Positions 5,743 to 22,338 of a stretch of DNA of 35,218 nucleotides are shown in pieces. The stretch is from an uncultured Muribaculaceae bacterium (GTDB lineage: Bacteria > Bacillota_I > Bacilli_A > RF39 > UBA660), in assembly GCA_964595115.1 (NCBI GenBank), contig CAZQOT010000001.1:1-35218 (forward strand). Reading direction: 5' to 3'. Each line of letters starts with the position of its first letter. Position 1 is the stretch's first letter. The notes beneath the pieces are model-generated. The model was not told where the DNA came from. It was given only the letters and a program-made list of their open reading frames with translations, and did not search any database. The position numbers were made by a program, and so were the translations under genes.

Positions 5743-5815
5743 ATCAATCACCTATAATGATTTTATCATATTAAACTTTAAATTTCTACTAAATTAAGTT
5801 ATAATTAAGTAGTGG

Positions 5816-6757
5816 GTGGTAATTTTGGAAAGTAGCAATGCTGTAAAAATGTTTATCTTAAATCCAGTTGCAGGACCAGATGATATGAGATTAATAAATA
5901 ATCGTAATTATTGTTTAGAAAATTATGTATATTCCCAAGGACTTGATTACTTTGACGTTGTTCATCGCACTAAAGAACGTGGAGATGCTAAGTTATTAGC
6001 TCAAGAATTTGCTAGTAAGTATGATAATCCAACTATATTTTGCCTTGGTGGAGATGGAACAGTTAGTGAAGTAATTAATGGTATTGGTAATAATGATGTT
6101 ATTTTAGTTATTAATCCTTGTGGGACTGGTAATGATTTTGTAAAAACTTTCTTTGGAAGAGATAGAAAAATAATAATGCAAAATTTTTATGAATGTGTAT
6201 CTAATGGTATAATTGAAGAAATAGATATTGGCATAATAAATAATAATATAAGAGTATTAAATGGTTTATCTATAGGACTTGATGCTAGGGTTGCTAAAAT
6301 AGCCTCCTTAATGAAAAATAAAAGTTATATCAAAGCTATCCCTAAAGCCTTATCAGATTTTGAATATCCTGAAGTAAGGATAACGTATTTTAGTGATAAA
6401 CTAAAACACATGATTACATTAAATCAAAAAATAACCCTACTTTCTTTAAACAATGGAAAATACTATGGTAAGGGTGTTAAAATTGCGCCTAAAGCCGACT
6501 TGTCTGATGGTCTTTTTGATATTTGTCTAGTTGATAAGATTCCTAAAGCTATTGTGCCTGTGTTTTTCCCTTTTGCTTTAGCAGGAATACATAAGTGTTT
6601 GTTTCCATTTGTTCATTTTGATAAAACAGATTATATTAAAGTTGAATCTGATCTTCCTTTTAATTATCAATATGATGGTGAATCAGGGATTACTAACGAA
6701 TTAGAACTAATAGTTGATAAGACAGTTAAGATTATAAGACCTAGAAAAAACCACTAA
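5816..6757 (+). CDS. Diacylglycerol/lipid kinase family protein (DAGK catalytic domain, YegS/BmrU-like)
   Basis: NPVAG...GGDGT motifs. The start is uncertain: GTG 5816, TTG 5825 (behind GGTGG) or ATG 5849. Confidence 0.75.
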   Translation: MVILESSNAVKMFILNPVAGPDDMRLINNRNYCLENYVYSQGLDYFDVVHRTKERGDAKLLAQEFASKYDNPTIFCLGGDGTVSEVINGIGNNDVILVINPCGTGNDFVKTFFGRDRKIIMQNFYECVSNGIIEEIDIGIINNNIRVLNGLSIGLDARVAKIASLMKNKSYIKAIPKALSDFEYPEVRITYFSDKLKHMITLNQKITLLSLNNGKYYGKGVKIAPKADLSDGLFDICLVDKIPKAIVPVFFPFALAGIHKCLFPFVHFDKTDYIKVESDLPFNYQYDGESGITNELELIVDKTVKIIRPRKNH

Positions 6758-6771
6758 ATGATAGTGGTTTT
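6747..6771. terminator. Bidirectional terminator between the convergent lipid-kinase gene and spoVS
   Basis: AAAACCACTA-AATGA-TAGTGGTTTT, with A/T runs on both sides. It overlaps both stop codons. Confidence 0.6.
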
Positions 6772-7030
6772 ATTTTGCTTCTATAATTAATTTTATAGCA
6801 GTACGTTCCTCCCCTTCGATGATTATGTCAGCAAAGGCTGGAATGCATACTAAATTTTTACCGCTTGGAGCTACAAAACCCCTTGCTATGGCAATTGCTT
6901 TTATTGCTTGATTAAGTGCCCCAGCACCTATTGCTTGTATTTCAACTGTCCCCTTTTCTCTAAAAACATTAGCTAGAGCGCCAGCAACTGAATTAGGATT
7001 TGATTTAGATGAAACTTTAAGTGTTTCCAT
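6770..7030 (-). CDS. spoVS: Stage V sporulation protein S
   Basis: 86 aa; METLKVSSKSNPNSVAGALANV...AIKAIAIARGF is a near-canonical SpoVS sequence. Confidence 0.9.
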   Translation of the reverse strand: METLKVSSKSNPNSVAGALANVFREKGTVEIQAIGAGALNQAIKAIAIARGFVAPSGKNLVCIPAFADIIIEGEERTAIKLIIEAK

Positions 7031-7189
7031 GAATGATAAGACCTCCTCTATGATTTACAATATAATATATGCAGGAAGACTTATTATAGAATATAAAAGG
7101 AAAAATTATAACTGTCAACTAAGCATTTTGTCTTTTCTTACATTAATAGATTTATGATATAATATTACTATAATAGGATAAGGTGTTAT

Positions 7190-8113
7190 ATGTTAAAATC
7201 TGTTTTAAGAGTATTGAACATAACGTTAATTATATTGGGTTGTTTATCAATTTATTTATATGTAGAAGAAAATAATATAGTTGATGAAATATGGTCATAC
7301 TATACTAAAGAATATTCTACAATTGTTACTAATGAATATGGTATTAATAAAGAAAATAATTATTTTCAAAAAAGTGATAATTTTAAACCTCAAACTAGAC
7401 TTGATTTATTAAATATTTATTATACGGTTATATCATCAGATAGTGATTCATTTACTTTTTATTGCCCCAATGATTATTCTTCTTGTATTGAAGATATAAA
7501 AGGTATTACCAATGATAGTTCATTATTATCACATATTAATAATTTTGTTCATCCTTTAAATTCATATAAAAGAGTTAAAACTACTTATTCAAATTTTGGT
7601 AAGATAACGATAAGTGTTATTAGATTGTATAGTGATAAAAAGAAAGAGTTAATAAATAATAAGATTGATGAATTATATTCTATACTTGTATCTAGCAATC
7701 GAAGTTCAACTGAGAATATCAAAAAAGTTCATGATTATATAGTAAATAATGTTACTTACGATACATCATATGAACAAGGTAATTCTATACATGAATCTAA
7801 TACTGCTTATGGCGCTTTATTTGAAGGATATGCTGTATGTAGTGGGTATACTGATTTAATGAGTATCTTCTTAAATAAAATGGGTATAAATAATTATAAA
7901 GTATCAAATGATACACATATATGGAATTTGGTTTATTTAGATGGCAAATGGTTACATTTAGATGCAACTTTTGATGATCCAGTGTCTAGCAATGGAAAAA
8001 ATTATTTGTCACATGATTATTTCCTTATAAGTACTGACAAACTAAAAGAATTAGATAAAAAGGATAATAAAAATTCTCATGTCTTCAATGAAGAAATATA
8101 TTTACTACAATAA
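7190..8113 (+). CDS. Membrane-anchored transglutaminase-like (cysteine protease fold) protein
   Basis: N-terminal TM helix. Transglutaminase core GYAVCSGYTDL...HIWNLVYLDGKWLHLDATFDD shows the Cys-His-Asp pattern. Confidence 0.7.
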   Translation: MLKSVLRVLNITLIILGCLSIYLYVEENNIVDEIWSYYTKEYSTIVTNEYGINKENNYFQKSDNFKPQTRLDLLNIYYTVISSDSDSFTFYCPNDYSSCIEDIKGITNDSSLLSHINNFVHPLNSYKRVKTTYSNFGKITISVIRLYSDKKKELINNKIDELYSILVSSNRSSTENIKKVHDYIVNNVTYDTSYEQGNSIHESNTAYGALFEGYAVCSGYTDLMSIFLNKMGINNYKVSNDTHIWNLVYLDGKWLHLDATFDDPVSSNGKNYLSHDYFLISTDKLKELDKKDNKNSHVFNEEIYLLQ

Positions 8114-8137
8114 AACCAAAGCATCTACTTTGGTTTT
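8112..8137. terminator. Bidirectional terminator
   Basis: AAAACCAAAG-CATCTA-CTTTGGTTTT between convergent genes. Confidence 0.6.
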
Positions 8138-8138
8138 A

Positions 8139-8513
8139 TTATGAATTAAAATGTATTCTAAGCTTGAAAAAATAGTATGTGAAAAAGTTAATAATTACAA
8201 TTAAATTAGTTAATATAATTGTATAAGTGTCTATTTTAAAAACTTTCAAAATAATAGTATTAACAAATAGAATAATTAATAAACAAATAATTAATATATA
8301 AATTACCTTTTTCTTACTGGCAGTAACTTTGAAAATCGTATTTTTAAAGCCTTGCCATAGAGCAAAAGCATTTATAATGATTACTGCTAAAATGTTTAAT
8401 ATGGAGTTTTCAAAGTTATAAATAGTTCGTATGGGTACAATAAAACAAAAGAGATAACTCCATAGAAAATAATAAAAACAAAATTTAATTGATACCCCAA
8501 AAATTGACAACAT
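8139..8513 (-). CDS. Hypothetical small polytopic membrane protein
   Basis: 124 aa with four hydrophobic helices and no recognisable family. Confidence 0.4.
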   Translation of the reverse strand: MLSIFGVSIKFCFYYFLWSYLFCFIVPIRTIYNFENSILNILAVIIINAFALWQGFKNTIFKVTASKKKVIYILIICLLIILFVNTIILKVFKIDTYTIILTNLIVIINFFTYYFFKLRIHFNS

Positions 8514-8539
8514 ACAACATCCGTCCCTCTTTCTAAAAA

Positions 8540-8560
8540 AATAACATCAAAAATGTTATT
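8540..8560 (-). terminator. Weak AT-rich terminator after the rubrerythrin gene
   Basis: Minus strand reads AATAACAT-TTTTG-ATGTTATT followed by TTTTTTAG. Confidence 0.35.
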
Positions 8561-8568
8561 TGTATGTT

Positions 8569-9138
8569 CTAATAATTTTCAGATAGAAGTTGGTAATATG
8601 CTTTTGGATGTGCGCACACTGGGCATATTTCTGGTGCTGAGGTGCCAACATGAACATTTCCGCATTCACGGCATATCCATGTAACTTCTTCATCTTTAGC
8701 AAATACTTTATTATTTTTTACATTTTCGTATAAAAATCTATATCGTTTTTCATGACGTTCTTCAATTTTAGAAATCTTCTCAAATAATACGGCTATATCA
8801 TTAAACCCTTCTTCTCTTGCTATTTTAGCAAATTCAGGATATAAAACAGTAGCTTCGTCCTTTTCTCCATTAGCAGCGTATTCTAGATTTTCAAGTGTTG
8901 TTCCAATATCACCTGCCGGATAAGAAGCCGTAATTTCTACTTCCCCACCCTCTAGTTTTTTATAAAATAATGATGCATGTTCCCTTTCGTTATCAGCTGT
9001 CTCTAAAAATATAGCTGCTATCTGTTCAAAACCTTCTTTTTTAGCAGTCGATGCATACATTTCATACCTTCTTTTAGCTTGACTTTCTCCAGCAAAAGCT
9101 TTCAATAAATTTTGTTCAGTCTTTGTTCCTTTTATCAT
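8569..9138 (-). CDS. rbr: Rubrerythrin (ferritin-like diiron domain plus C-terminal rubredoxin-like CxxC...CxxC)
   Basis: MIKGTKTEQNLLKAFAGESQARRYE-like start and CRECGNVH...CPVCAHP. The ATG at 9138 follows AAGGAGG; the ORF-track extension to 9183 lacks an SD. Confidence 0.85.
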   Translation of the reverse strand: MIKGTKTEQNLLKAFAGESQAKRRYEMYASTAKKEGFEQIAAIFLETADNEREHASLFYKKLEGGEVEITASYPAGDIGTTLENLEYAANGEKDEATVLYPEFAKIAREEGFNDIAVLFEKISKIEERHEKRYRFLYENVKNNKVFAKDEEVTWICRECGNVHVGTSAPEICPVCAHPKAYYQLLSENY

Positions 9139-9210
9139 ATTTATTCCTCCTTTATCATTTATAATTATATCATAAAGTACCAAAAAAGGAATTGAAATTC
9201 CTAATTAAAT

Positions 9211-10530
9211 CTATAAATAATTTTGTTTTAATGCTGTTACATATTGATCAATCATATCATGCAAATCATCAGGACTCATGAATATTACTACACTATCATG
9301 ATGATTCATTAATTTTGATGCATCATCTCGTTTAATACTTTCCCCATTATTTAATAAATCTATTATTAAATTATTTGTTACACCTGGATAATTGCTTTCT
9401 TTTTCTCTACTTGGATATACATCTAAAATATATGATTTATCTATAGTATTTAAAACATTAGCTATTTCTTTATGTAAAGCTTTGGTACGTGAATAAGTAT
9501 GGGGTAAAAAGACTCCTATTATTTTTTTATCAGGATATTTTTGTTTAGCTGCTTCAATTACTGCTTTTATCTCGGTTGGATGATGAGCGTAATCATCAAT
9601 AATAATCATATCTTTTACAAATATTTCACTAAACCTTCTTTTAGCTCCTTCATAAGTTGTTAGATAATAAGCTACTTTATCTATATTTAAACCTTCTAAA
9701 TAGGCAGTAGCAATGACAGCTAAAGAATTTAAAATCATATGTTTACCAAAAAGATTAATTTTAAAGTTATTAATTAATTTATCTTTGAAAAATACATCAA
9801 AGGTGAATCCCTTGGTAGTAGATACAACATTAGTAACTTTAAAATCATTATTATCATTAAAGCCATATAAATATACTTCTTTATTCATTTTACTTTTGAT
9901 TTCTTTGATATTTTCATCATCGCCGTAAGCAATTATTTGCTTATTTGTTTGGTTGGCAAATGATATATAAGCATCTTTTATATCCTCTAAATCTTTATAA
10001 TAATCAACATGATCAAGTTCAATATTTGTAATGATGGTCGTATTAGGATAATAATTTAAAAAATGCCTACGATATTCACAAGCCTCAATAATAAAATTGT
10101 TGTTATCTTTGTTTGCATAACCTGTGCCATCACCAATTAAATAATTAGTGCCTATAATATTATTAAATACATGGGACATAATTGATGTGGTTGTCGTTTT
10201 ACCATGACATCCACAAACAGCTATAGTGTCATATTTTTTCGATAATTCACCTAATAATTCATAATATCCATATTTTTTTATACCTAATTTATTTGCTTTG
10301 ATAAGTGCTGGATTATCTTCTTTTATAGAAGCTCCAACAATAGCTATCATGTCATTTGTTATATTAGCATTTTCGTAAGGCATTATTTCAATTCCTCTTT
10401 TATCTAAAGCAATTTGTGTAAAGAAATAATCCTCTTTATCTGAACCGTTAACATTACAACCCAAATCAAACATAATTTGAGCTAATGAACTCATACCAGA
10501 TCCTTTTATACCAATAAAATGATATGTCAT
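9211..10530 (-). CDS. murC: UDP-N-acetylmuramate--L-alanine ligase
   Basis: 439 aa with YHFIGIKGSGMSSLAQIM and GCHGKTTTTSIM Mur-ligase motifs. Confidence 0.9.
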   Translation of the reverse strand: MTYHFIGIKGSGMSSLAQIMFDLGCNVNGSDKEDYFFTQIALDKRGIEIMPYENANITNDMIAIVGASIKEDNPALIKANKLGIKKYGYYELLGELSKKYDTIAVCGCHGKTTTTSIMSHVFNNIIGTNYLIGDGTGYANKDNNNFIIEACEYRRHFLNYYPNTTIITNIELDHVDYYKDLEDIKDAYISFANQTNKQIIAYGDDENIKEIKSKMNKEVYLYGFNDNNDFKVTNVVSTTKGFTFDVFFKDKLINNFKINLFGKHMILNSLAVIATAYLEGLNIDKVAYYLTTYEGAKRRFSEIFVKDMIIIDDYAHHPTEIKAVIEAAKQKYPDKKIIGVFLPHTYSRTKALHKEIANVLNTIDKSYILDVYPSREKESNYPGVTNNLIIDLLNNGESIKRDDASKLMNHHDSVVIFMSPDDLHDMIDQYVTALKQNYL

Positions 10531-11123
10531 TAAGCTTTCCTCCTAGCAGTTGTTGAATTATATGTATATGTTTGACTACGAATTTCTTGTATTTTGTTAT
10601 AACAAGGATTATGCTTACAAAATGGAATATATGGGTAATCATTTAATGAAAATTGATAATGTAATTCATAATCTTCTATGAAACCTAAGTGTTTTGCAAT
10701 CATTAAAGAATGTTCATTATCTTTTGCTATTTCAAGAATAATAGTTTCCAAATTAAAAGGATTTGCTAGAAATATGGAATTACAAATTTTATTCAATAAT
10801 CTAGTTCCATATTTTTCGGGCAAATGACGATATTTCTTGTGAATAGCATATTCAATTGTTACAGCATTATCAATACATCTAGTATTCTTAACCGTAAAAA
10901 GGCCTATATATTCATTAATTGATTTATCTCTGACAAGAAATGCTAAAGAAATATTATCTGAAGTGCATTCTATTGATTTTTTAATATCTCCAGCAATATT
11001 ATTAATATATTTATTAATATAATTATCGCTCTCAATTTCATTTAAGAATTTTTTTTGTTCGGGATCAAATTTGTCATAAAAAACAAATTTGATTGTTGAA
11101 TCTTGATTTAGTAACTTCTCCAT
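10530..11123 (-). CDS. GNAT-family acetyltransferase-like protein
   Basis: 197 aa. The core TIEYAIHKKYR...YGTRLLNKI...AKHLGF resembles the GNAT A/B motifs. The stop overlaps the murC ATG (TAATG). Confidence 0.45.
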   Translation of the reverse strand: MEKLLNQDSTIKFVFYDKFDPEQKKFLNEIESDNYINKYINNIAGDIKKSIECTSDNISLAFLVRDKSINEYIGLFTVKNTRCIDNAVTIEYAIHKKYRHLPEKYGTRLLNKICNSIFLANPFNLETIILEIAKDNEHSLMIAKHLGFIEDYELHYQFSLNDYPYIPFCKHNPCYNKIQEIRSQTYTYNSTTARRKA

Positions 11124-11165: not shown

Positions 11166-13265
11166 TTATATCAAAATTTCTATATTATCATTATTAAAAT
11201 CAACTGTGATGTTATCGCCATAGTTTATTTTTTCTTCAATTAGTTGCTTAGCTATTTCGGTTTCTATATGTCTTGAAATAAACCTTTTAAATGGTCTAAC
11301 TCCATAGTTAATATCGTAAGCACTATCAATGATATGTTCAATGGCTTTATTTGTAATATTTATAGTTAAGTTGTACTCATTTAATCTTGTTTCTAGTTCT
11401 CCTATGATTTTTCTTATAATTTTACTAATGATATCCTTAGACAATGAATTAAAGATAATTATTTCATCTATTCGATTTAAGAATTCTGGTCTGAATGTTT
11501 TTTTCATCAAATCAAGGACTAGGTCTTGACCTTTATTTTCTAAAATATATTCACTACCTATATTAGATGTCATAATAATTATAGTGTTCTTAAAATCAAC
11601 TACTCTACCATGACTATCTGTTATTCTACCATCATCAAGAATTTGAAGCAAAATGTTAAATACATCATGATGAGCTTTTTCAATTTCATCAAATAAGACA
11701 ATACTGTAAGGATTACGCCTAACAGCCTCTGTTAATTGACCACCTTCATCGTAACCGATATATCCTGGGGGAGAACCAATTAAACGAGAAACATTAAATG
11801 CTTCCATATATTCACTCATATCTATTCTAATCATATGGCGTTCATCATCAAACAGTTGATATGCTAAGGTTCTAGCAACTTCTGTTTTGCCTACTCCCGT
11901 AGGACCAAGGAAGATGAATGAACCAATTGGACGATTAGGATCTTTTATACCTGCTCTAGCTCTAATAATAGCCTCACTGACAAGTTTTAGAGCATCGTCT
12001 TGACCAATGACACGTTTACTCATTTCCACTTCAAGATTGAGGAGTTTTTCTTTTTCACCCATAGCAAGTTTTGTAACAGGAATGTTAGTCCATTTTGAAA
12101 TGATGCTTGCTATTGATTCTTCAGTAACAGTATCACTAAGCATTTTATTTTCATCTTTTGCTTTTAATTCTTTTAATTCTTTTTCAAGAGTTGGAATTTC
12201 ACCATGACGAATACGGGCAGAAGTCTCTAAATCATATTTGTTTTCAGCTTGTTCTAATCTAAATTTTGCATTCTCAAGTTCACTTTTTTTCTTATTAATT
12301 TTTTCGTTAATATTTTTTTCTTCTTCCCAAGCTTTACGCAACTCACTTTCTTTAGCTTTCAAAGTTATTAATTCATCATTTATAGTATCTAATCTTTTTT
12401 TGCTAGTGTCATCTTTCTCTTTCTTTAAAGCATGGCTCTCTACCTCAAGTTGCATTATATTTCGTGTTAAAGTATCTAATTCAACAGGTACTGAATCCAT
12501 TTGAACTTTGATAGTAGCACAAGCTTCATCGACTAAATCAATAGCTTTATCAGGTAAAAATCTATCTGTAATATAACGATTAGATAAATTAGCGGCAGCA
12601 ATAAGAGCTTTATCTGAAATGTTAACACCATGATGAACCTCATATCTTTCTTTTAATCCACGAAGAATTGTAATGGTGTCTGTTACAGTTGGTTCACTAA
12701 CCATAACCTTTTGAAATCTACGTTCTAAGGCACCATCTAATTCAATGTATTTACGATACTCATTTAAGGTGGTTGCTCCTATACAATGAATTTCACCTCT
12801 AGCAAGCATTGGCTTTAACATGTTAGAAACATCCATAGCACCTTCTAATCTACCAGCACCTACTATCATGTGAATTTCATCAATAAACATAATAATGTTG
12901 CCATCACTGTTTTTTATTTCTTTTAAAACAGCTTTAAGTCTTTCTTCAAATTCCCCTCGATATTTAGCACCTGCTATTAAGGCACCCATATCTAATTCCC
13001 AAATAGTCTTATCTTTTAAACTGTTTGGTACATCACCAGCCACTATTCGTCTAGCTAAACCTTCGACAATAGCGGTTTTACCAACACCTGGTTCACCTAT
13101 TAAAACAGGATTATTTTTTGTTTTACGAGATAAAATACGAGTAATGCTACGAACTTCCTCATCACGACCAATAACAGGATCTATTTTACCGTCTTTAACA
13201 TCTTTAACGATATCACGACCATACTTTTCTAAAACATTTTCTAAATTTTCTTGATAATCATTCAT
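11166..13265 (-). CDS. clpB: ClpB-type AAA+ disaggregase lacking the N-terminal domain (699 aa)
   Basis: Two Walker A sites ([16 protein letters not shown]), a long coiled-coil middle domain, and [11 protein letters not shown]. The ATG at 13265 follows GAGGTGA. The ORF-track extension to 13403 runs through the promoter and the neighbouring gene. Confidence 0.9.
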
Positions 13266-13283
13266 GATAATCACCTCAATATA

Positions 13284-13312
13284 ATTATAATATACAAAAT
13301 AGCACTCGTCAA
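13284..13312 (-). promoter_or_regulatory. SigA-type promoter of clpB (TTGACG-N17-TATAAT)
   Basis: Minus strand has TTGACG at 13312..13307, a 17-nt spacer, and TATAAT at 13289..13284, about 19 nt before the ATG. Confidence 0.6.
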
Positions 13313-13325
13313 TACCGAGCGCTAT
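13299..13325 (-). promoter_or_regulatory. CIRCE-like HrcA operator overlapping the clpB -35
   Basis: Minus strand reads ATAGCGCTC-GGTATTGAC-GAGTGCTAT, versus the consensus TTAGCACTC-N9-GAGTGCTAA. Confidence 0.6.
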
Positions 13326-13350
13326 TTCTGCTATACTACATTTTAATAAT

Positions 13351-13866
13351 TTATTCCAACCATATCTTTGTAATAACTGTGTCGTGAGCCATTCTATATC
13401 CACCTAACCAAAAATTAAAATGAATATAGTATTCTCCTTGATATGTACTAATATCTAAACTTCCTTCATATTGGGATTCATCATCGGGAAAATAAAAATT
13501 AGAAACAAACTGGTCGGTATCATCCATTTTATTATCATTTATACTTATATGTGATGCCCATGCGTTATCAGTAGTAGTTGTGTATTGCACTTTTAATGTA
13601 TTATATCCAGTTGTATCGACTTTGTTTTTGGTTGTTATTACAATACCATTACCAGCAGGTGTCATGTTTTCTTCAATATGTATGGCTATGTTATTTGCAT
13701 TAAAAGTTATTGTAGTACCAGGTTGAAGATAGGTATCTCCAATTTCCCAATCATCAGTTCCAATGCCTTCATTATACAGGTAATAATTTAATCCCAGATC
13801 GCAACTATCTTCACTTACCTCAATATTATGATATGAACCACATGCACTCCTATAATATATTGTTTT
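13351..13866 (-). CDS. Hypothetical beta-rich protein with an N-terminal CGSYHN...C module. The frame is open for 171 codons, but the first in-frame ATG is at 13665.
   Basis: The frame stays open from the TAG at 13869..13867 to the TAA at 13353..13351. The N-terminal 16 aa match the region upstream of the glycine-rich gene. No in-frame ATG/GTG/TTG exists upstream of 13665, and 13665 has no SD. Confidence 0.45.
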
Positions 13867-13904
13867 CTATATTTTAGAATAACATAGATATACGCTTTTT
13901 GCAA
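13839..13904 (-). repeat. Copy B of the 66-bp promoter/leader repeat (TTGCAA-N17-TATTCT with TG-extended -10, SD GGAGTG, ATG)
   Basis: 57/66 identical, by hand alignment, to 21023..21088. The -35 is at 13904..13899 and the -10 at 13881..13876. Confidence 0.65.
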
Positions 13905-13948
13905 CCAAAGAATATAAAGGACGTGTAAAAAAATGATAATTTAAAATT

Positions 13949-19266: not shown

Positions 19267-20700
19267 TTATTGTGCACCGATAAATGTAATTATAGCGTAA
19301 CCATCACCTGATCTACCGTTCATATTTCCACCATTAGGATTTGGCATTGATGTGTTACCATCAATCGTTTGGCCATCAGTTACGCCCCCAATATAACCAG
19401 AACCACCTGCACCTGAACCATATGTAACAACATAATATAGTTGTGAATTGCCAATACATTGGAATCTAGATCCACCGCCACCTCCATAGTAACCACCGCC
19501 GCCAACACCACCCCCTTGAGTAGATTTGTCACCGCCAACACCTAAGGTTCCGGCTGATCCAGCCCATTGTTCAAAAGTATAAGTACAAGTACGTGGAGTA
19601 GACGCAATAGCGCGTTGACCTCCAGCTGTTTGAGTGCCACCTTTGTTTGGTATATTGGTTGTTATTACGCTTGTATGATAAGTCCCAGAATAAATTAATC
19701 CATCTACGCCATCACTGCCACCACCAGCGCCACCCTTTATACATTGTGTAGAGTTGCTAGTATCGTATCTTAGTTCATTATGCCCTGCCGATCCACCGCC
19801 GCCAGCAACAATAATTCTATTGCTCAAATCAGTTCCCCCCATACGAATATCAGTAGCCCCACCCCCACCATAGCCTGATGAACAAGCAGAAGTAGTGCCG
19901 CCTCCGCCATTATAACACATACCACCAACATAGATATAAATTGTTTCGTTAGCATTAATGGTTACATTACCAGTAGAATAACTACCCTTACCAGCATATG
20001 ATATGTCGCATTTCCAATCACTTCCACCTTGTGCTCCCCAAACTTCCAATTTATAAGTACCTGTTACTGGTGCTATAAATGTTTGTTGAGAACCAGTGAA
20101 AGAATATTCACTAGGAGGGAATGTTACATTCACTGTTCTAGTGGCTGTTGCAACGTTACCAGCTTCATCAGTTGCTGTATAAGTAATCGTATATGTTCCA
20201 ACAGCATTTATGTTGACATCTCCTTTAGTCGACACACTTAAATTACCACTAATATCATCTGTTGCAGTAGCACCCTGATCAGTGTATGTAGATCCTAGTT
20301 CAATTGTAATTGTACTATCGCCAGTTATCGTTATTTCTGGAGCTAAAGTGTCTAATAAAAAGCTCTTTGAAAATCTAGCTACATTATCATTCAAATCACT
20401 AGCTATTGCATGGAGATAATAAGTTCCTGAGGTTATTGGAGCTTCTGTTAAGGGGTTTCCACTAACATAACTATGTATATATTCTTCGTCTGTTGGTACA
20501 TCTTCACTATTTGTCCAAACATATTTGAGACTAGAAGTATCAATAGTTTTATCAATAACTGAAATAGTTATTTTACTAACTGTCATATATGTTGATGAAC
20601 CATTTGGCGTGTATATAATAATTGGCGGTCCAAAATCTAGTTCACAATCACCTTCATATACATTAACATTATGATAACTTCCACATGAGGTAAAACCTCC
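19267..20700 (-). CDS. Surface-type protein with a Cys-loop module, two Ig-like domains (the second DUF5011-like) and a C-terminal glycine-rich domain (PF12810-like). The frame is open back to the pilin TGA; the first ATG is at 20586.
   Basis: ITITGDSTITIELGSTYTDQGATATDDISGNL...GTYTITYTATDEAGNVATATRTVNV is Ig-like. YSFTGSQQTFIAPVTGTYKLEVWGAQGGS plus repeated GGGG tracts marks the glycine-rich family. There is no signal peptide and no SD before the 20586 ATG. Confidence 0.7.
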   Translation of the reverse strand, partial: GGFTSCGSYHNVNVYEGDCELDFGPPIIIYTPNGSSTYMTVSKITISVIDKTIDTSSLKYVWTNSEDVPTDEEYIHSYVSGNPLTEAPITSGTYYLHAIASDLNDNVARFSKSFLLDTLAPEITITGDSTITIELGSTYTDQGATATDDISGNLSVSTKGDVNINAVGTYTITYTATDEAGNVATATRTVNVTFPPSEYSFTGSQQTFIAPVTGTYKLEVWGAQGGSDWKCDISYAGKGSYSTGNVTINANETIYIYVGGMCYNGGGGTTSACSSGYGGGGATDIRMGGTDLSNRIIVAGGGGSAGHNELRYDTSNSTQCIKGGAGGGSDGVDGLIYSGTYHTSVITTNIPNKGGTQTAGGQRAIASTPRTCTYTFEQWAGSAGTLGVGGDKSTQGGGVGGGGYYGGGGGSRFQCIGNSQLYYVVTYGSGAGGSGYIGGVTDGQTIDGNTSMPNPNGGNMNGRSGDGYAIITFIGAQ

Positions 20701-21021
20701 TCATTTATCTTTGCCAGTTATTATAATAAATAGTTTATCATTATGTTTAGTAAAGACAATACTTTCATAATTAGCACCGTTCAAATTTAAGGCTGTTAAT
20801 AGACCTTTCAAATCACTATTATAATCCATTGGATTAAAATCACCTATCTCTAATTTTTTTAAATCAATAGATTTCAACACTAATTTTGTATCACTTTTCA
20901 TTGAGCTCATCGTGCTTTTTTTAATAATACCTGATATTCCTGGTACGGCTATTGCTAAGATAATAGCAAGCACAACTATTACTGCCAATAATTCTACTAG
21001 CGTAAATCCTTTTTTATTCAT
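20701..21021 (-). CDS. Prepilin-type N-terminal cleavage/methylation domain protein (type IV pilin / pseudopilin-like), 106 aa
   Basis: MNKKG|FTLVELLAVIVVLAIILAIAVPG is a class III signal with Glu at +5. SD GAGGAG precedes it. The gene ends in TGA. Confidence 0.85.
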   Translation of the reverse strand: MNKKGFTLVELLAVIVVLAIILAIAVPGISGIIKKSTMSSMKSDTKLVLKSIDLKKLEIGDFNPMDYNSDLKGLLTALNLNGANYESIVFTKHNDKLFIIITGKDK

Positions 21022-21022
21022 T

Positions 21023-21088
21023 CACATGCACTCCTCTATTATATTGTTATCCATATAATAGAATATCATACATATACACTTTTTGCAA
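21023..21088 (-). repeat. Copy A of the 66-bp promoter/leader repeat (TTGCAA-N17-TATTCT, TG-extended) driving the pilin gene
   Basis: The -35 is at 21088..21083 and the -10 at 21065..21060, followed by SD GAGGAGTG and then ATG-TGA-ATG. It matches 13839..13904. Confidence 0.65.
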
Positions 21089-21380: not shown

Positions 21381-22274
21381 TTATTTTTTATGAGCCCTTG
21401 GATGTGCTTTTAAATATATACTTCTTAATCTTTCATTAGTAACATGGGTATATATACTAGTTGTACTCAGACTCTCGTGACCTAATAATTCTTGAACAAC
21501 TAGCAAATCAGCTCCAGATTCAAGCATATGAGTTGCAAAAGTATGTCTTATCGTATGGGGGGAAATATGCTTTTTTAATGATGTTTCTTTTATTAGATTA
21601 TTAATTATATATCTAATAGCTCTTTCCGTTATTTGATTCCCACGGTTATTTAATATTAAGTGGTCACACTTTTTATTATTTAATAGTTTTAAATATCCAT
21701 CTTTTAAATATATATTCATTATATCTTTACAACAATCTCCAAATATGACATTACGCATTTTATTTCCCTTACCAGTAACAGAAATTATTCTATTATGTAA
21801 ATCAATATCATTCATCTTAATTTGTATTAATTCACCTACTCTTATTCCAGTAGCATACAATAATTCAAGAATTAATCTATTTCTTTGCCCTAATGGATTA
21901 TCCATGTTAGGAACAACTAATAGATCTTCTAATTCATTATAGTAAAGAAATGATGGTAATTTTTTTTCTTTCTTTGGAAGAGATACAAGTAAAAATGGAT
22001 TATCATCAATTATATCTTCTACCGTTAAATATTTGTAAAAACTACGAAGTGAACTAATCTTTCTTGAAATGGTAGATCTTTTATATTTAAATTCGTGTAG
22101 TTTCATTAGATATGGTTTAATACCTTGATATGTCAATTTATTATATACAATCTGATTATCACTTAAATAACTAATAAATTCTTTTATGTCTTCTTTGTAA
22201 TTAATAATTGTATTTTCAGAATAACCGCGTTCAAATCTTAAATATTTAATAAATTTTTCAAGATAATTATTCAT
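21381..22274 (-). CDS. xerC: Tyrosine recombinase XerC/XerD family
   Basis: Core-binding N-terminal domain and a catalytic HTIRHTFATHML...LLGHESLSTTSIYTHV (R-H-R-Y). Its position downstream of topA matches the Firmicute topA...codV(xerC) synteny. The start is ATG 22274 or TTG 22286. Confidence 0.8.
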   Translation of the reverse strand: MNNYLEKFIKYLRFERGYSENTIINYKEDIKEFISYLSDNQIVYNKLTYQGIKPYLMKLHEFKYKRSTISRKISSLRSFYKYLTVEDIIDDNPFLLVSLPKKEKKLPSFLYYNELEDLLVVPNMDNPLGQRNRLILELLYATGIRVGELIQIKMNDIDLHNRIISVTGKGNKMRNVIFGDCCKDIMNIYLKDGYLKLLNNKKCDHLILNNRGNQITERAIRYIINNLIKETSLKKHISPHTIRHTFATHMLESGADLLVVQELLGHESLSTTSIYTHVTNERLRSIYLKAHPRAHKK

Positions 22275-22338
22275 ATTATCACCCAATTATATTTTATCAT
22301 AAAAAATAGTCTTTGTTTTTTGATAATTATTGCAAACA

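Follow-up and report, generated by a model that had tools for sequence, protein, structure and literature searches.

A Probable 5′-Truncated Relic of a Modular Type IV Pilin Gene and Its Interrupted Sister Gene in an Uncultured Low-GC Bacterium

Two Loci With a Common Promoter and Leader

The analyzed window is a stretch of 35,218 nucleotides (nt) covering positions 1 to 35,218 of contig CAZQOT010000001.1 (GenBank assembly GCA_964595115.1) from an uncultured bacterium. It contains two loci preceded by copies of the same promoter and leader. Locus A comprises a gene for a type IV pilin and the frame for a glycine-rich protein downstream of it. Locus B, the main subject of this study, comprises a 171-codon frame encoding a predicted β-sandwich domain. 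Both loci lie on the minus strand, and their features are given for this strand throughout.

The leader copy at locus B (13839..13904, 66 bp) and the copy at locus A (21023..21088) are identical at 57 of 66 positions without gaps (blastn, E = 3e-11). The next-best match to the leader among the 66-mers of the whole window, on both strands, reaches 36 of 66 positions. The two copies are in direct orientation and 7184 bp apart. Copy A runs into the sequence ATG-TGA-ATG, with the pilin start codon at 21021. Copy B includes the -35 element TTGCAA (13904-13899), a 17-nt spacer, the TG extension (13884-13883), and the -10 element TATTCT (13881-13876). These are followed by a 5′ untranslated region (UTR) of about 25 nt, the Shine-Dalgarno (SD) sequence AGGAG (13851-13847), and the 8-mer TGCATGTG (13846-13839). 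The initial annotation of this region had reported the 57/66 match, the direct orientation at about 7 kb, and a TTGCAA-N17-TATTCT promoter with TG extension, SD, and CATGTG, and all of these were borne out. None of the nine mismatches between the two leaders falls within the -35, TG, -10, or SD elements.

The promoter of copy B, scoring 8/12, is absent from the output of the consensus promoter scan. Nevertheless, the similarity between copies A and B begins precisely at the -35 element, as does the similarity between locus A and contig L001, which was derived from another species (Logan SRR29050540). The leader of L001 is 80-87% identical to that of locus A (86.6% over 82 nt), and further upstream the identity drops to 43%. 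Homology between loci A and B as detected by blastn consists of the 66-bp leader and about 18 nt of a junction sequence on the 5′ side; no homology was found 3′ of the cargo regions. A scan of metagenomes with the leader pattern gave 0 matches.

Two further features of the leader were observed in both the window and L001. The whole promoter and 5′ UTR are conserved between the two species to the same degree as the coding sequence. Additionally, a two-codon ATG-TGA start-stop is located between the SD and the pilin ATG (21022-21027 in the window; 4531-4536 in L001, ATGTGATG). As its ATG is just 3 nt from the SD, this start-stop may be incidental.

Reading Frame of Locus B

The frame at 13866-13354 is fully open over 171 codons, as had been claimed, and in 0 of 20000 shuffles was a frame open as long. 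It opens inside the 5′ UTR, nine codons ahead of a Cys codon, and its first in-frame ATG, GTG, or TTG is located at 13665, which is codon 68. The ATG and GTG within CATGTG are in the other two frames. The ATG, the sole one near the SD and 3 nt after AGGAG, begins the mini-ORF (open reading frame) ATG TGG TTC ATA TCA TAA (MWFIS*; 13826..13843), which closes after 5 codons; the GTG at 13841 closes after 8 codons. By codon usage, the cargo frame scores +20.6/+29.2 and the other two frames score -15 to -80.

The beginning of the frame resembles an internal part of pilins. Its first 19 residues align to an internal hairpin of full-length pilins, and the segment at 13801..13845, containing a C-x12-C pair, corresponds to the last β-hairpin of the pilin module (residues ~113-127 of P0028, P0038, P0043, and P0010). 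The pattern ACGSYHN-x-V-x-E-x2-C-x-L is shared with the junction of locus A (10 of 19 amino acids, aa). The rest of the pilin module, namely the long α1 helix and the β-sheet, is missing from locus B, and the hairpin remains as 15-19 aa. No class III signal peptide was found at locus B; the window contains a single pilin N-terminus of the FTLVE type, at 21006, and it belongs to locus A.

As read from the sequence, ribosomes recruited by the SD of locus B would meet only the out-of-frame ATG and GTG and would halt after 5 and 8 codons. Since there is no start codon in this region, no class III signal peptide, and no in-frame pair of SD and start codon, the 171-aa product proposed in the initial annotation should not be makeable by ordinary translation. 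Several non-canonical routes were considered and rejected. A +1 or -1 frameshift from the ATG or GTG near the SD would need a slippery site, and none is present; moreover, A and B have different SD spacings, and the SD and ATG are not kept in L001 and in a second contig, L002. Reinitiation after MWFIS* at an ATT codon has no counterpart at locus A, which has GTT in its place. A further candidate, an internal start at GGAGG-N9-ATG of locus A, was rejected because this SD and ATG are an accident of the codons for (W)-G-G...S-C and are absent in L001 and L002.

Cargo Domain of Locus B

Residues 21-164 of the frame (13354..13785; stop codon 13353-13351) encode a domain that was predicted to form an 11-strand β-sandwich ending with KIWLE. 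In the AlphaFold model of the B protein, this cargo domain has a predicted local distance difference test (pLDDT) score of 84.9, and the hairpin remnant is disordered (pLDDT 49-56). The top Foldseek matches in PDB were carbohydrate-binding modules (CBMs), namely the CBM of 1wky, followed by CBM8, CBM11, CBM86, CBM27, and CBM4, with template modeling (TM) scores of 0.5-0.6, E-values from 3e-6 to 1e-4, and sequence identities of 8-18%. The predicted β-sandwich (jelly-roll) thus resembles the CBMs in fold alone, having no Pfam match and no identified ligand-binding residues.

An exhaustive HMMER search found 19 remote relatives of the B cargo (P0122-P0140), in which the motifs YLYNEG, KxDLTxY, and GEYYI recur along with WLE at the C-terminus. 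Neither the B cargo nor its family has a match in Pfam or PHROG, and the “YLYNEG...GEYYI...WLE” β-sandwich is a candidate for a new domain family. In a word-indexed protein search the B protein matched itself only, and a scan of metagenomes with this protein gave 0 matches. Exact look-ups of P0001, P0141, P0002, P0028, and P0038 returned no record.

The same domain was also found at the C-termini of proteins other than pilins (P0123, P0129, and P0140), all of which have a common N-terminal region, “GGGxSLNF(K/A)V...”. In P0126, a protein of 533 aa with a pilin-like N-terminus, the domain is present twice.

Locus A Is a Single Modular Pilin Gene Interrupted by TGA

The initial annotation treated locus A as two genes, encoding a pilin and a glycine-rich protein, respectively. 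These ORFs, the 106-aa “pilin” (21021-20704) and the 439-aa “glycine-rich” one, belong to one frame and are parted only by the TGA at 20703-20701. The first 106 codons (20704..21021) encode a class III signal peptide, MNKKGFTLVE, and a pilin module (PF07963, E = 4.7e-8). The TGA (20701..20703) is codon 107. The rest of the frame (19267..20700) encodes a GGFTS-CGSYHNVNVYEGDC hairpin, an immunoglobulin (Ig)-like domain (PF16403, E = 1e-21), and a glycine-rich domain (PF12810, E = 8e-26), the latter two with full-length profile matches. All 472 codons past the TGA stay open.

Homologues of the downstream ORF are single polypeptides of about 450-750 aa that combine the prepilin N-terminal methylation motif PF07963 with PF16403 and PF12810. 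In the closest of them (P0038, P0043, and P0028), the pilin module is 59-69% identical to that of locus A. These closest homologues read “...ITVTGKGKW-AGLTACGSYHTITVSDDGCELD...” at the site where the window reads “...IIITGKDK*-GGFTSCGSYHNVNVYEGDCELD...”, so that the pattern GKGKW-xG(F/L)(T/S)ACGSYH(N/T)...C stands at the place of GKDK*GGFTSCGSYHN...C. Every aligned homologue that spans the site has Trp at the position of the TGA, encoded by TGG in L001, and thus the TGA replaces a conserved Trp (GKxKW). With Trp at the UGA, the sequence across the stop would be WGGFTSCGSYHNVNVYEGDCELDFGPPIIIYTPNGSSTYMTVSK.

In these homologues, the CGSYHN-x7-C “Cys-loop” occupies residues ~113-127 of one polypeptide, after the conserved Trp. 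The AlphaFold model of residues 1-209 of P0038 (pLDDT 87) contains a helix at 9-59 and strands at 86-94, 97-104, 112-115 (ACGS), and 121-123. The last two strands form a hairpin with pLDDT of 84-89, and the Ig-like domain begins at residue 135. In this model the CGSYHN hairpin is the predicted last β-hairpin of the pilin sheet, located just ahead of the linker to the cargo. The shared N-terminal Cys-loop peptide of about 16 aa that had been proposed for the two loci is therefore an internal segment of the pilin. A profile of the pilin module matched PilE1 of Streptococcus sanguinis (8pfb, E = 6.6e-13). A Foldseek search with the P0038 model matched the Ig domain alone and was uninformative on the pilin part.

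Judging by these sequences, locus A is one modular type IV pilin gene that a single nonsense codon has disabled or, at the very least, interrupted. The TGA site is among 1-2 of just 23 possible GC-to-AT nonsense paths in this gene, and its fall at the module boundary is a mild coincidence. Reassignment of TGA to Trp (genetic code 4) was rejected because TGA is a true stop in four other genes of the window, the frames of which close 3-14 codons later. No tRNA genes were found in the window. Selenocysteine at the TGA was also rejected, since the homologues have Trp rather than Cys and no hairpin of the size of a selenocysteine insertion sequence (SECIS) follows. The small hairpin located right after the TGA, GAGGT-TTT-ACCTC (20685-20704), consists of 5 bp, not enough for a SECIS, and shares sequence with the SD-like GGAGG.

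Full-Length Relatives With a B-Type Cargo

The best of the 19 relatives of the B cargo, P0122 from the Bacilli metagenome-assembled genome (MAG) GCA_028690435.1, consists of a pilin module, GKNKWEGLIAQGSYSTMEVSEDNSYYVYNEG, and a B-type cargo, and matches all of B with 39% identity (E = 7e-9). On the DNA level (L002, JAQVBG010000001.1), a complete prepilin N-terminus is encoded upstream, with ATA in place of ATG. Because P0122 joins a pilin module, the hairpin, and a B-type cargo, this architecture evidently exists, and on the sequence evidence locus B would be the same architecture without its first ~112 codons. Other relatives carry further types of cargo on the same pilin and junction, for example a tandem pair in L004. 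The earlier idea of a constant part joined to variable cargo was thus right in general; what stays constant is the type IV pilin module as a whole (signal peptide, α1 helix, and β-sheet) rather than an N-terminal peptide. A co-regulated family with a common N-terminal peptide found no support, as the constant part is the pilin module and locus B has no start codon.

The gene for P0122 belongs to a tandem array of modular pilin genes in L002. Two adjacent genes, 9171-9818 and 9862-10654, have an identical leader and a near-identical pilin module and differ in cargo (Ig-like and B-type, respectively). A third gene, encoding an N_methyl motif and an Ig-like domain, is located upstream of this pair at 5788-6441, so that the region spans 5788-10654. 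The gene with the B-type cargo, having ATA where its neighbor has ATG, may be inactive too.

Proposed Deletion Junction at Locus B

The 8-mer TGCATGTG at 13839..13846 closes the leader and simultaneously supplies the codons (A)C(G) of the pilin hairpin. It is also present in the leader of locus A (21023-21030), and L001 has it twice, once in the leader (as TGTATGTG) and again at the ACG codons “act gca tgt gga”. The 5′ UTR of leader A ends with ...AGGAGTGCATGTG/AATG, the hairpin codons of the full-length gene in L001 read ...ACT GCA TGT G/GA TCA TAT CA., and locus B reads ...AGGAGTGCATGTG/GTTCATATCATAAT across the junction. The crossover lies inside the 8-nt repeat, which extends the CATGTG microhomology noticed before. 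The occurrence of TGCATGTG at both would-be breakpoints, together with the internal hairpin homology, supports the earlier suggestion that locus B is a paralogue that lost its pilin ORF by microhomology-mediated deletion.

The junction was also found in a second strain. Logan contig L086 (SRR8925826), with 10 single-nucleotide polymorphisms (SNPs) in 2505 nt relative to the window (99.6% identity), spans uppS, tdk, a 179-aa gene, and the leader, and then continues for 23 nt past an identical junction. Since L086 comes from a separate assembly, the junction is not an assembly artefact.

Origin of Locus B

In our view, locus B is probably a young pseudogene, namely what is left of a second gene for a modular type IV pilin after its 5′ part was lost in a deletion at TGCATGTG. 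The ancestral gene would have comprised the promoter and leader, a class III signal peptide with a pilin module (~112 codons, ending with ACGSYHN...C), a short linker, and the CBM-like cargo. A deletion between two copies of TGCATGTG, one at the end of the 5′ UTR and a second where the hairpin has its Ala-Cys-Gly codons, would have taken the start codon, the signal peptide, and nearly all of the pilin module, a loss of about 110 pilin codons. The remnant is probably still transcribed, because the -35, TG, -10, and SD elements are intact. Lacking an initiation codon over 67 codons as well as an export signal, the cargo frame would be a pseudogene, and the protein would have no pilin helix with which to enter a filament. 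From the undamaged cargo frame we infer that the pseudogene is young. Locus A would be the sister gene, with Ig-like and glycine-rich cargo, interrupted by a TGG-to-TGA change at the conserved Trp 107. Apart from their lesions, the two genes are in pristine condition, with 472 and 171 open codons, as against about 12 before a random frame closes in this genome. We take both lesions to be recent ones in a pilus system that is decaying.

Several observations weigh against this explanation. The deletion is common to two strains that are 0.4% diverged, and no intact allele was found at the clpB-tdk position; the relatives from a scan of genome contigs with the pilin-module profile all have at most 40% identity. 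The B protein keeps every residue conserved in its family as well as a confident predicted fold, and no further lesions were found in the frame, the conserved residues, or the fold prediction. The length of the open frame in a genome with 28% GC points in the same direction, as does the sparing of the promoter and SD by all nine leader mismatches (P~0.04 under random placement, our own hypergeometric estimate). An open frame would be no less expected if the deletion is recent. Taken together, the intact frame, the promoter, and the shared deletion fit a recent deletion in a long-functional gene and, equally, continued selection.

Alternative Explanations

It seems improbable that the junction is an artefact of assembly or binning, or a minority variant among mostly intact copies of the gene. 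The window is a contig of a MAG, and the end of L086 at 23 nt past the junction could be due to branching of the assembly graph. A k-mer assembler, however, cannot be misled by a repeat of 8 bp, and the same junction recurs in a separate assembly with 10 SNPs in 2505 nt. Quite improbable is a working gene at locus B, with a duplicated promoter and a cargo-only protein made from near the Cys-loop by non-canonical initiation or frameshifting at SD-AUGUGG, the glycine-rich part of locus A being made likewise and the two forming a co-regulated pair. Such a pair would account for the intact frames at both loci, for the SD followed by ATGTGG at both junctions (AGGAG-3nt-ATG in B, GGAGG-9nt-ATG in A), and for the synonymous GGT/GGA and TCA/AGT differences, which indicate conservation of CGSYHN at the protein level. 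Relative to the conserved frame, however, the ATG lies at +1 and the GTG at -1, no slippery sequence is present, and the initiator anticodon cannot re-pair on UGU. The SD-ATG spacing is 3 nt in B vs. 9 nt in A, and SD and ATG of the A junction come about as a by-product of codons and are missing in homologues: L001 has TGG AAT GGG...GCA TGT, and L002 has AQG/AEG without ATG. The conservation of CGSYHN is fully accounted for by its place inside full-length pilins, and the product would have no signal peptide, while homologous cargo is displayed on pilins. The 104-aa ORF called at this locus in the public record (P0001, 13351..13665) is very unlikely to be a real gene, even though it starts with an ATG, the first one in frame. 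The family homology and the predicted fold start 47 residues upstream of its Met (YLYNEG...), so that the ORF starts mid-sandwich without the first four of 11 β-strands; no SD was found ahead of its ATG (sequence ttgaagaaaacATG), and the upstream 60 codons score as coding in the same frame.

The least probable explanation is that locus B serves as a silent cassette or shufflon-type donor that swaps the cargo of pilin A by recombination at the junction. Locus B resembles the pilS cassettes of Neisseria in being a 5′-truncated pilin copy without a start codon, located a few kb from the expression locus, with which it shares a Cys segment. Additionally, a tyrosine recombinase gene (21381-22286) adjoins pilin A. 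In the R64 shufflon (PilV, Rci recombinase), as here, a constant N-terminal part of a pilin is combined with alternative C-terminal parts. The pilS cassettes, however, are promoterless and have conserved segments on both sides of the variable region, whereas locus B has a full promoter and SD and shares with locus A only the leader and about 18 nt on the 5′ side. Moreover, the cargo of A and that of B have unrelated folds and do not represent variants of one sequence. The shufflon requires inverted sfx repeats and clustered segments; here there are no inverted sfx-like repeats, the direct repeats are 7 kb apart, and the housekeeping genes uppS, tdk, and ppdK lie between them. A reciprocal exchange would delete these genes, of which uppS is likely essential, and the recombinase has an ordinary domain pair of the XerC/D type.

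A recoding site at the boundary between pilin core and cargo was also considered, with the UGA at locus A read inefficiently by tRNA-Trp and the intact B cargo kept under selection and expressed non-canonically from the retained promoter and SD; we regard this as quite unlikely. It is hinted at because lesions cluster at the boundary, namely the TGA, 1-nt A-run deletions in two contigs, L083 and L084, and the breakpoint of B, seven codons downstream. Reading UGA as Trp would restore exactly the ancestral residue at locus A. Tolerance of in-frame stop codons through read-through has been documented in bacteria (Belinky et al., 2021, PMC7918605), and locus A is similar in having a single UGA at a Trp codon with an intact frame downstream. 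It differs in that no conservation of its stop was observed, the spanning aligned homologues all carrying Trp. The case for site-specific disruption at the boundary is weakened because many other metagenomic pilin fragments of the same family are truncated at scattered positions; disruption of these pilins seems to be common and not site-specific.

The deletions in L083 (~485-510) and L084 (~555-581), two contigs with related metagenomic pilin genes, affect an A-run (GGAAAAACAAATGG and GGGAAAATAAATGG, respectively) two codons ahead of the conserved Trp. In the -1 frame, reading goes on without a stop as ...KNKWEGLTVSG.... These deletions could be due to sequencing error, phase variation, or slippage.

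Comparison With Modular Type IV Pilins

Modular type IV pilins are exemplified by PilB and PilC of S. sanguinis, which carry a vWA and a lectin module, respectively (Raynaud et al., 2021, PMC8179133; PMC9934059). The ancestral layout of loci A and B is the same as theirs, consisting of a class III signal peptide, a small pilin module, a short linker, and a grafted module, and PilE1 of S. sanguinis is the closest solved sequence relative of the pilin module of locus A. An extra C-terminal module on a short linker was found at both loci, CBM-like in B and composed of PF16403 and PF12810 in A. Unlike the known examples, neither gene has an uninterrupted ORF from signal peptide to cargo. In A, the TGA at codon 107 lies between the pilin core and the last hairpin, and in B the start codon and the codons of the pilin module are gone. 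The cargo also differs, being Ig-like plus PF12810 and an unclassified “WLE” β-sandwich rather than vWA or ConA-like. No prepilin peptidase or assembly machinery (PilD, PilB/ComGA, PilC/ComGB) was found among the ORFs of the window, and a literature search on PF12810 in bacteria found nothing relevant.

The main consequence of this analysis is a correction of annotation, as three ORFs of the public annotation, with 106 aa (“pilin”), 439 aa (“glycine-rich protein”), and 104 aa (hypothetical), become two damaged modular pilin genes. It also adds two types of cargo, an Ig-like domain with the polyglycine-rich PF12810 and an unclassified CBM-like β-sandwich, to the modular pilins of uncultured low-GC Bacilli. 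Locus B further provides a clean natural case of an 8-bp microhomology deletion fusing a promoter to an internal codon. If the downstream frames are expressed, read-through or non-canonical initiation would set the ratio of plain to cargo-bearing pilins, and a recoding site, were it real, would yield many short pilins and few pilin-cargo fusions at a fixed ratio from one gene.

Surrounding Genes

A hairpin followed by a T-run was detected by a terminator scan 3′ of locus B (13296..13328, minus strand). It corresponds to the operator-like sequence of a clpB-like gene, an inverted repeat ATAGCACTC-N9-GAGCGCTAT (13299-13325, minus) that resembles CIRCE (controlling inverted repeat of chaperone expression), with 3 mismatches to the consensus and 0.01 occurrences expected by chance. 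This repeat overlaps a TTGACG-17-TATAAT promoter (13312..13284) just upstream of the clpB-like gene. The sequence suggests control of this gene by HrcA, and the hairpin and T-run may also terminate transcripts of locus B. The true start of the clpB-like gene is the ATG at 13265, vs. the GTG at 13403 in the ORF list.

A search against Rfam gave 0 matches in the window. Homologues of SpoIIM (337-984) and SpoIVB (1752-2747) are encoded near its beginning, both on the minus strand. By these homologues, the organism (28% GC), which its pilin relatives place in an uncultured lineage of Bacilli or “Mollicutes”-like bacteria, appears to be a spore-former.

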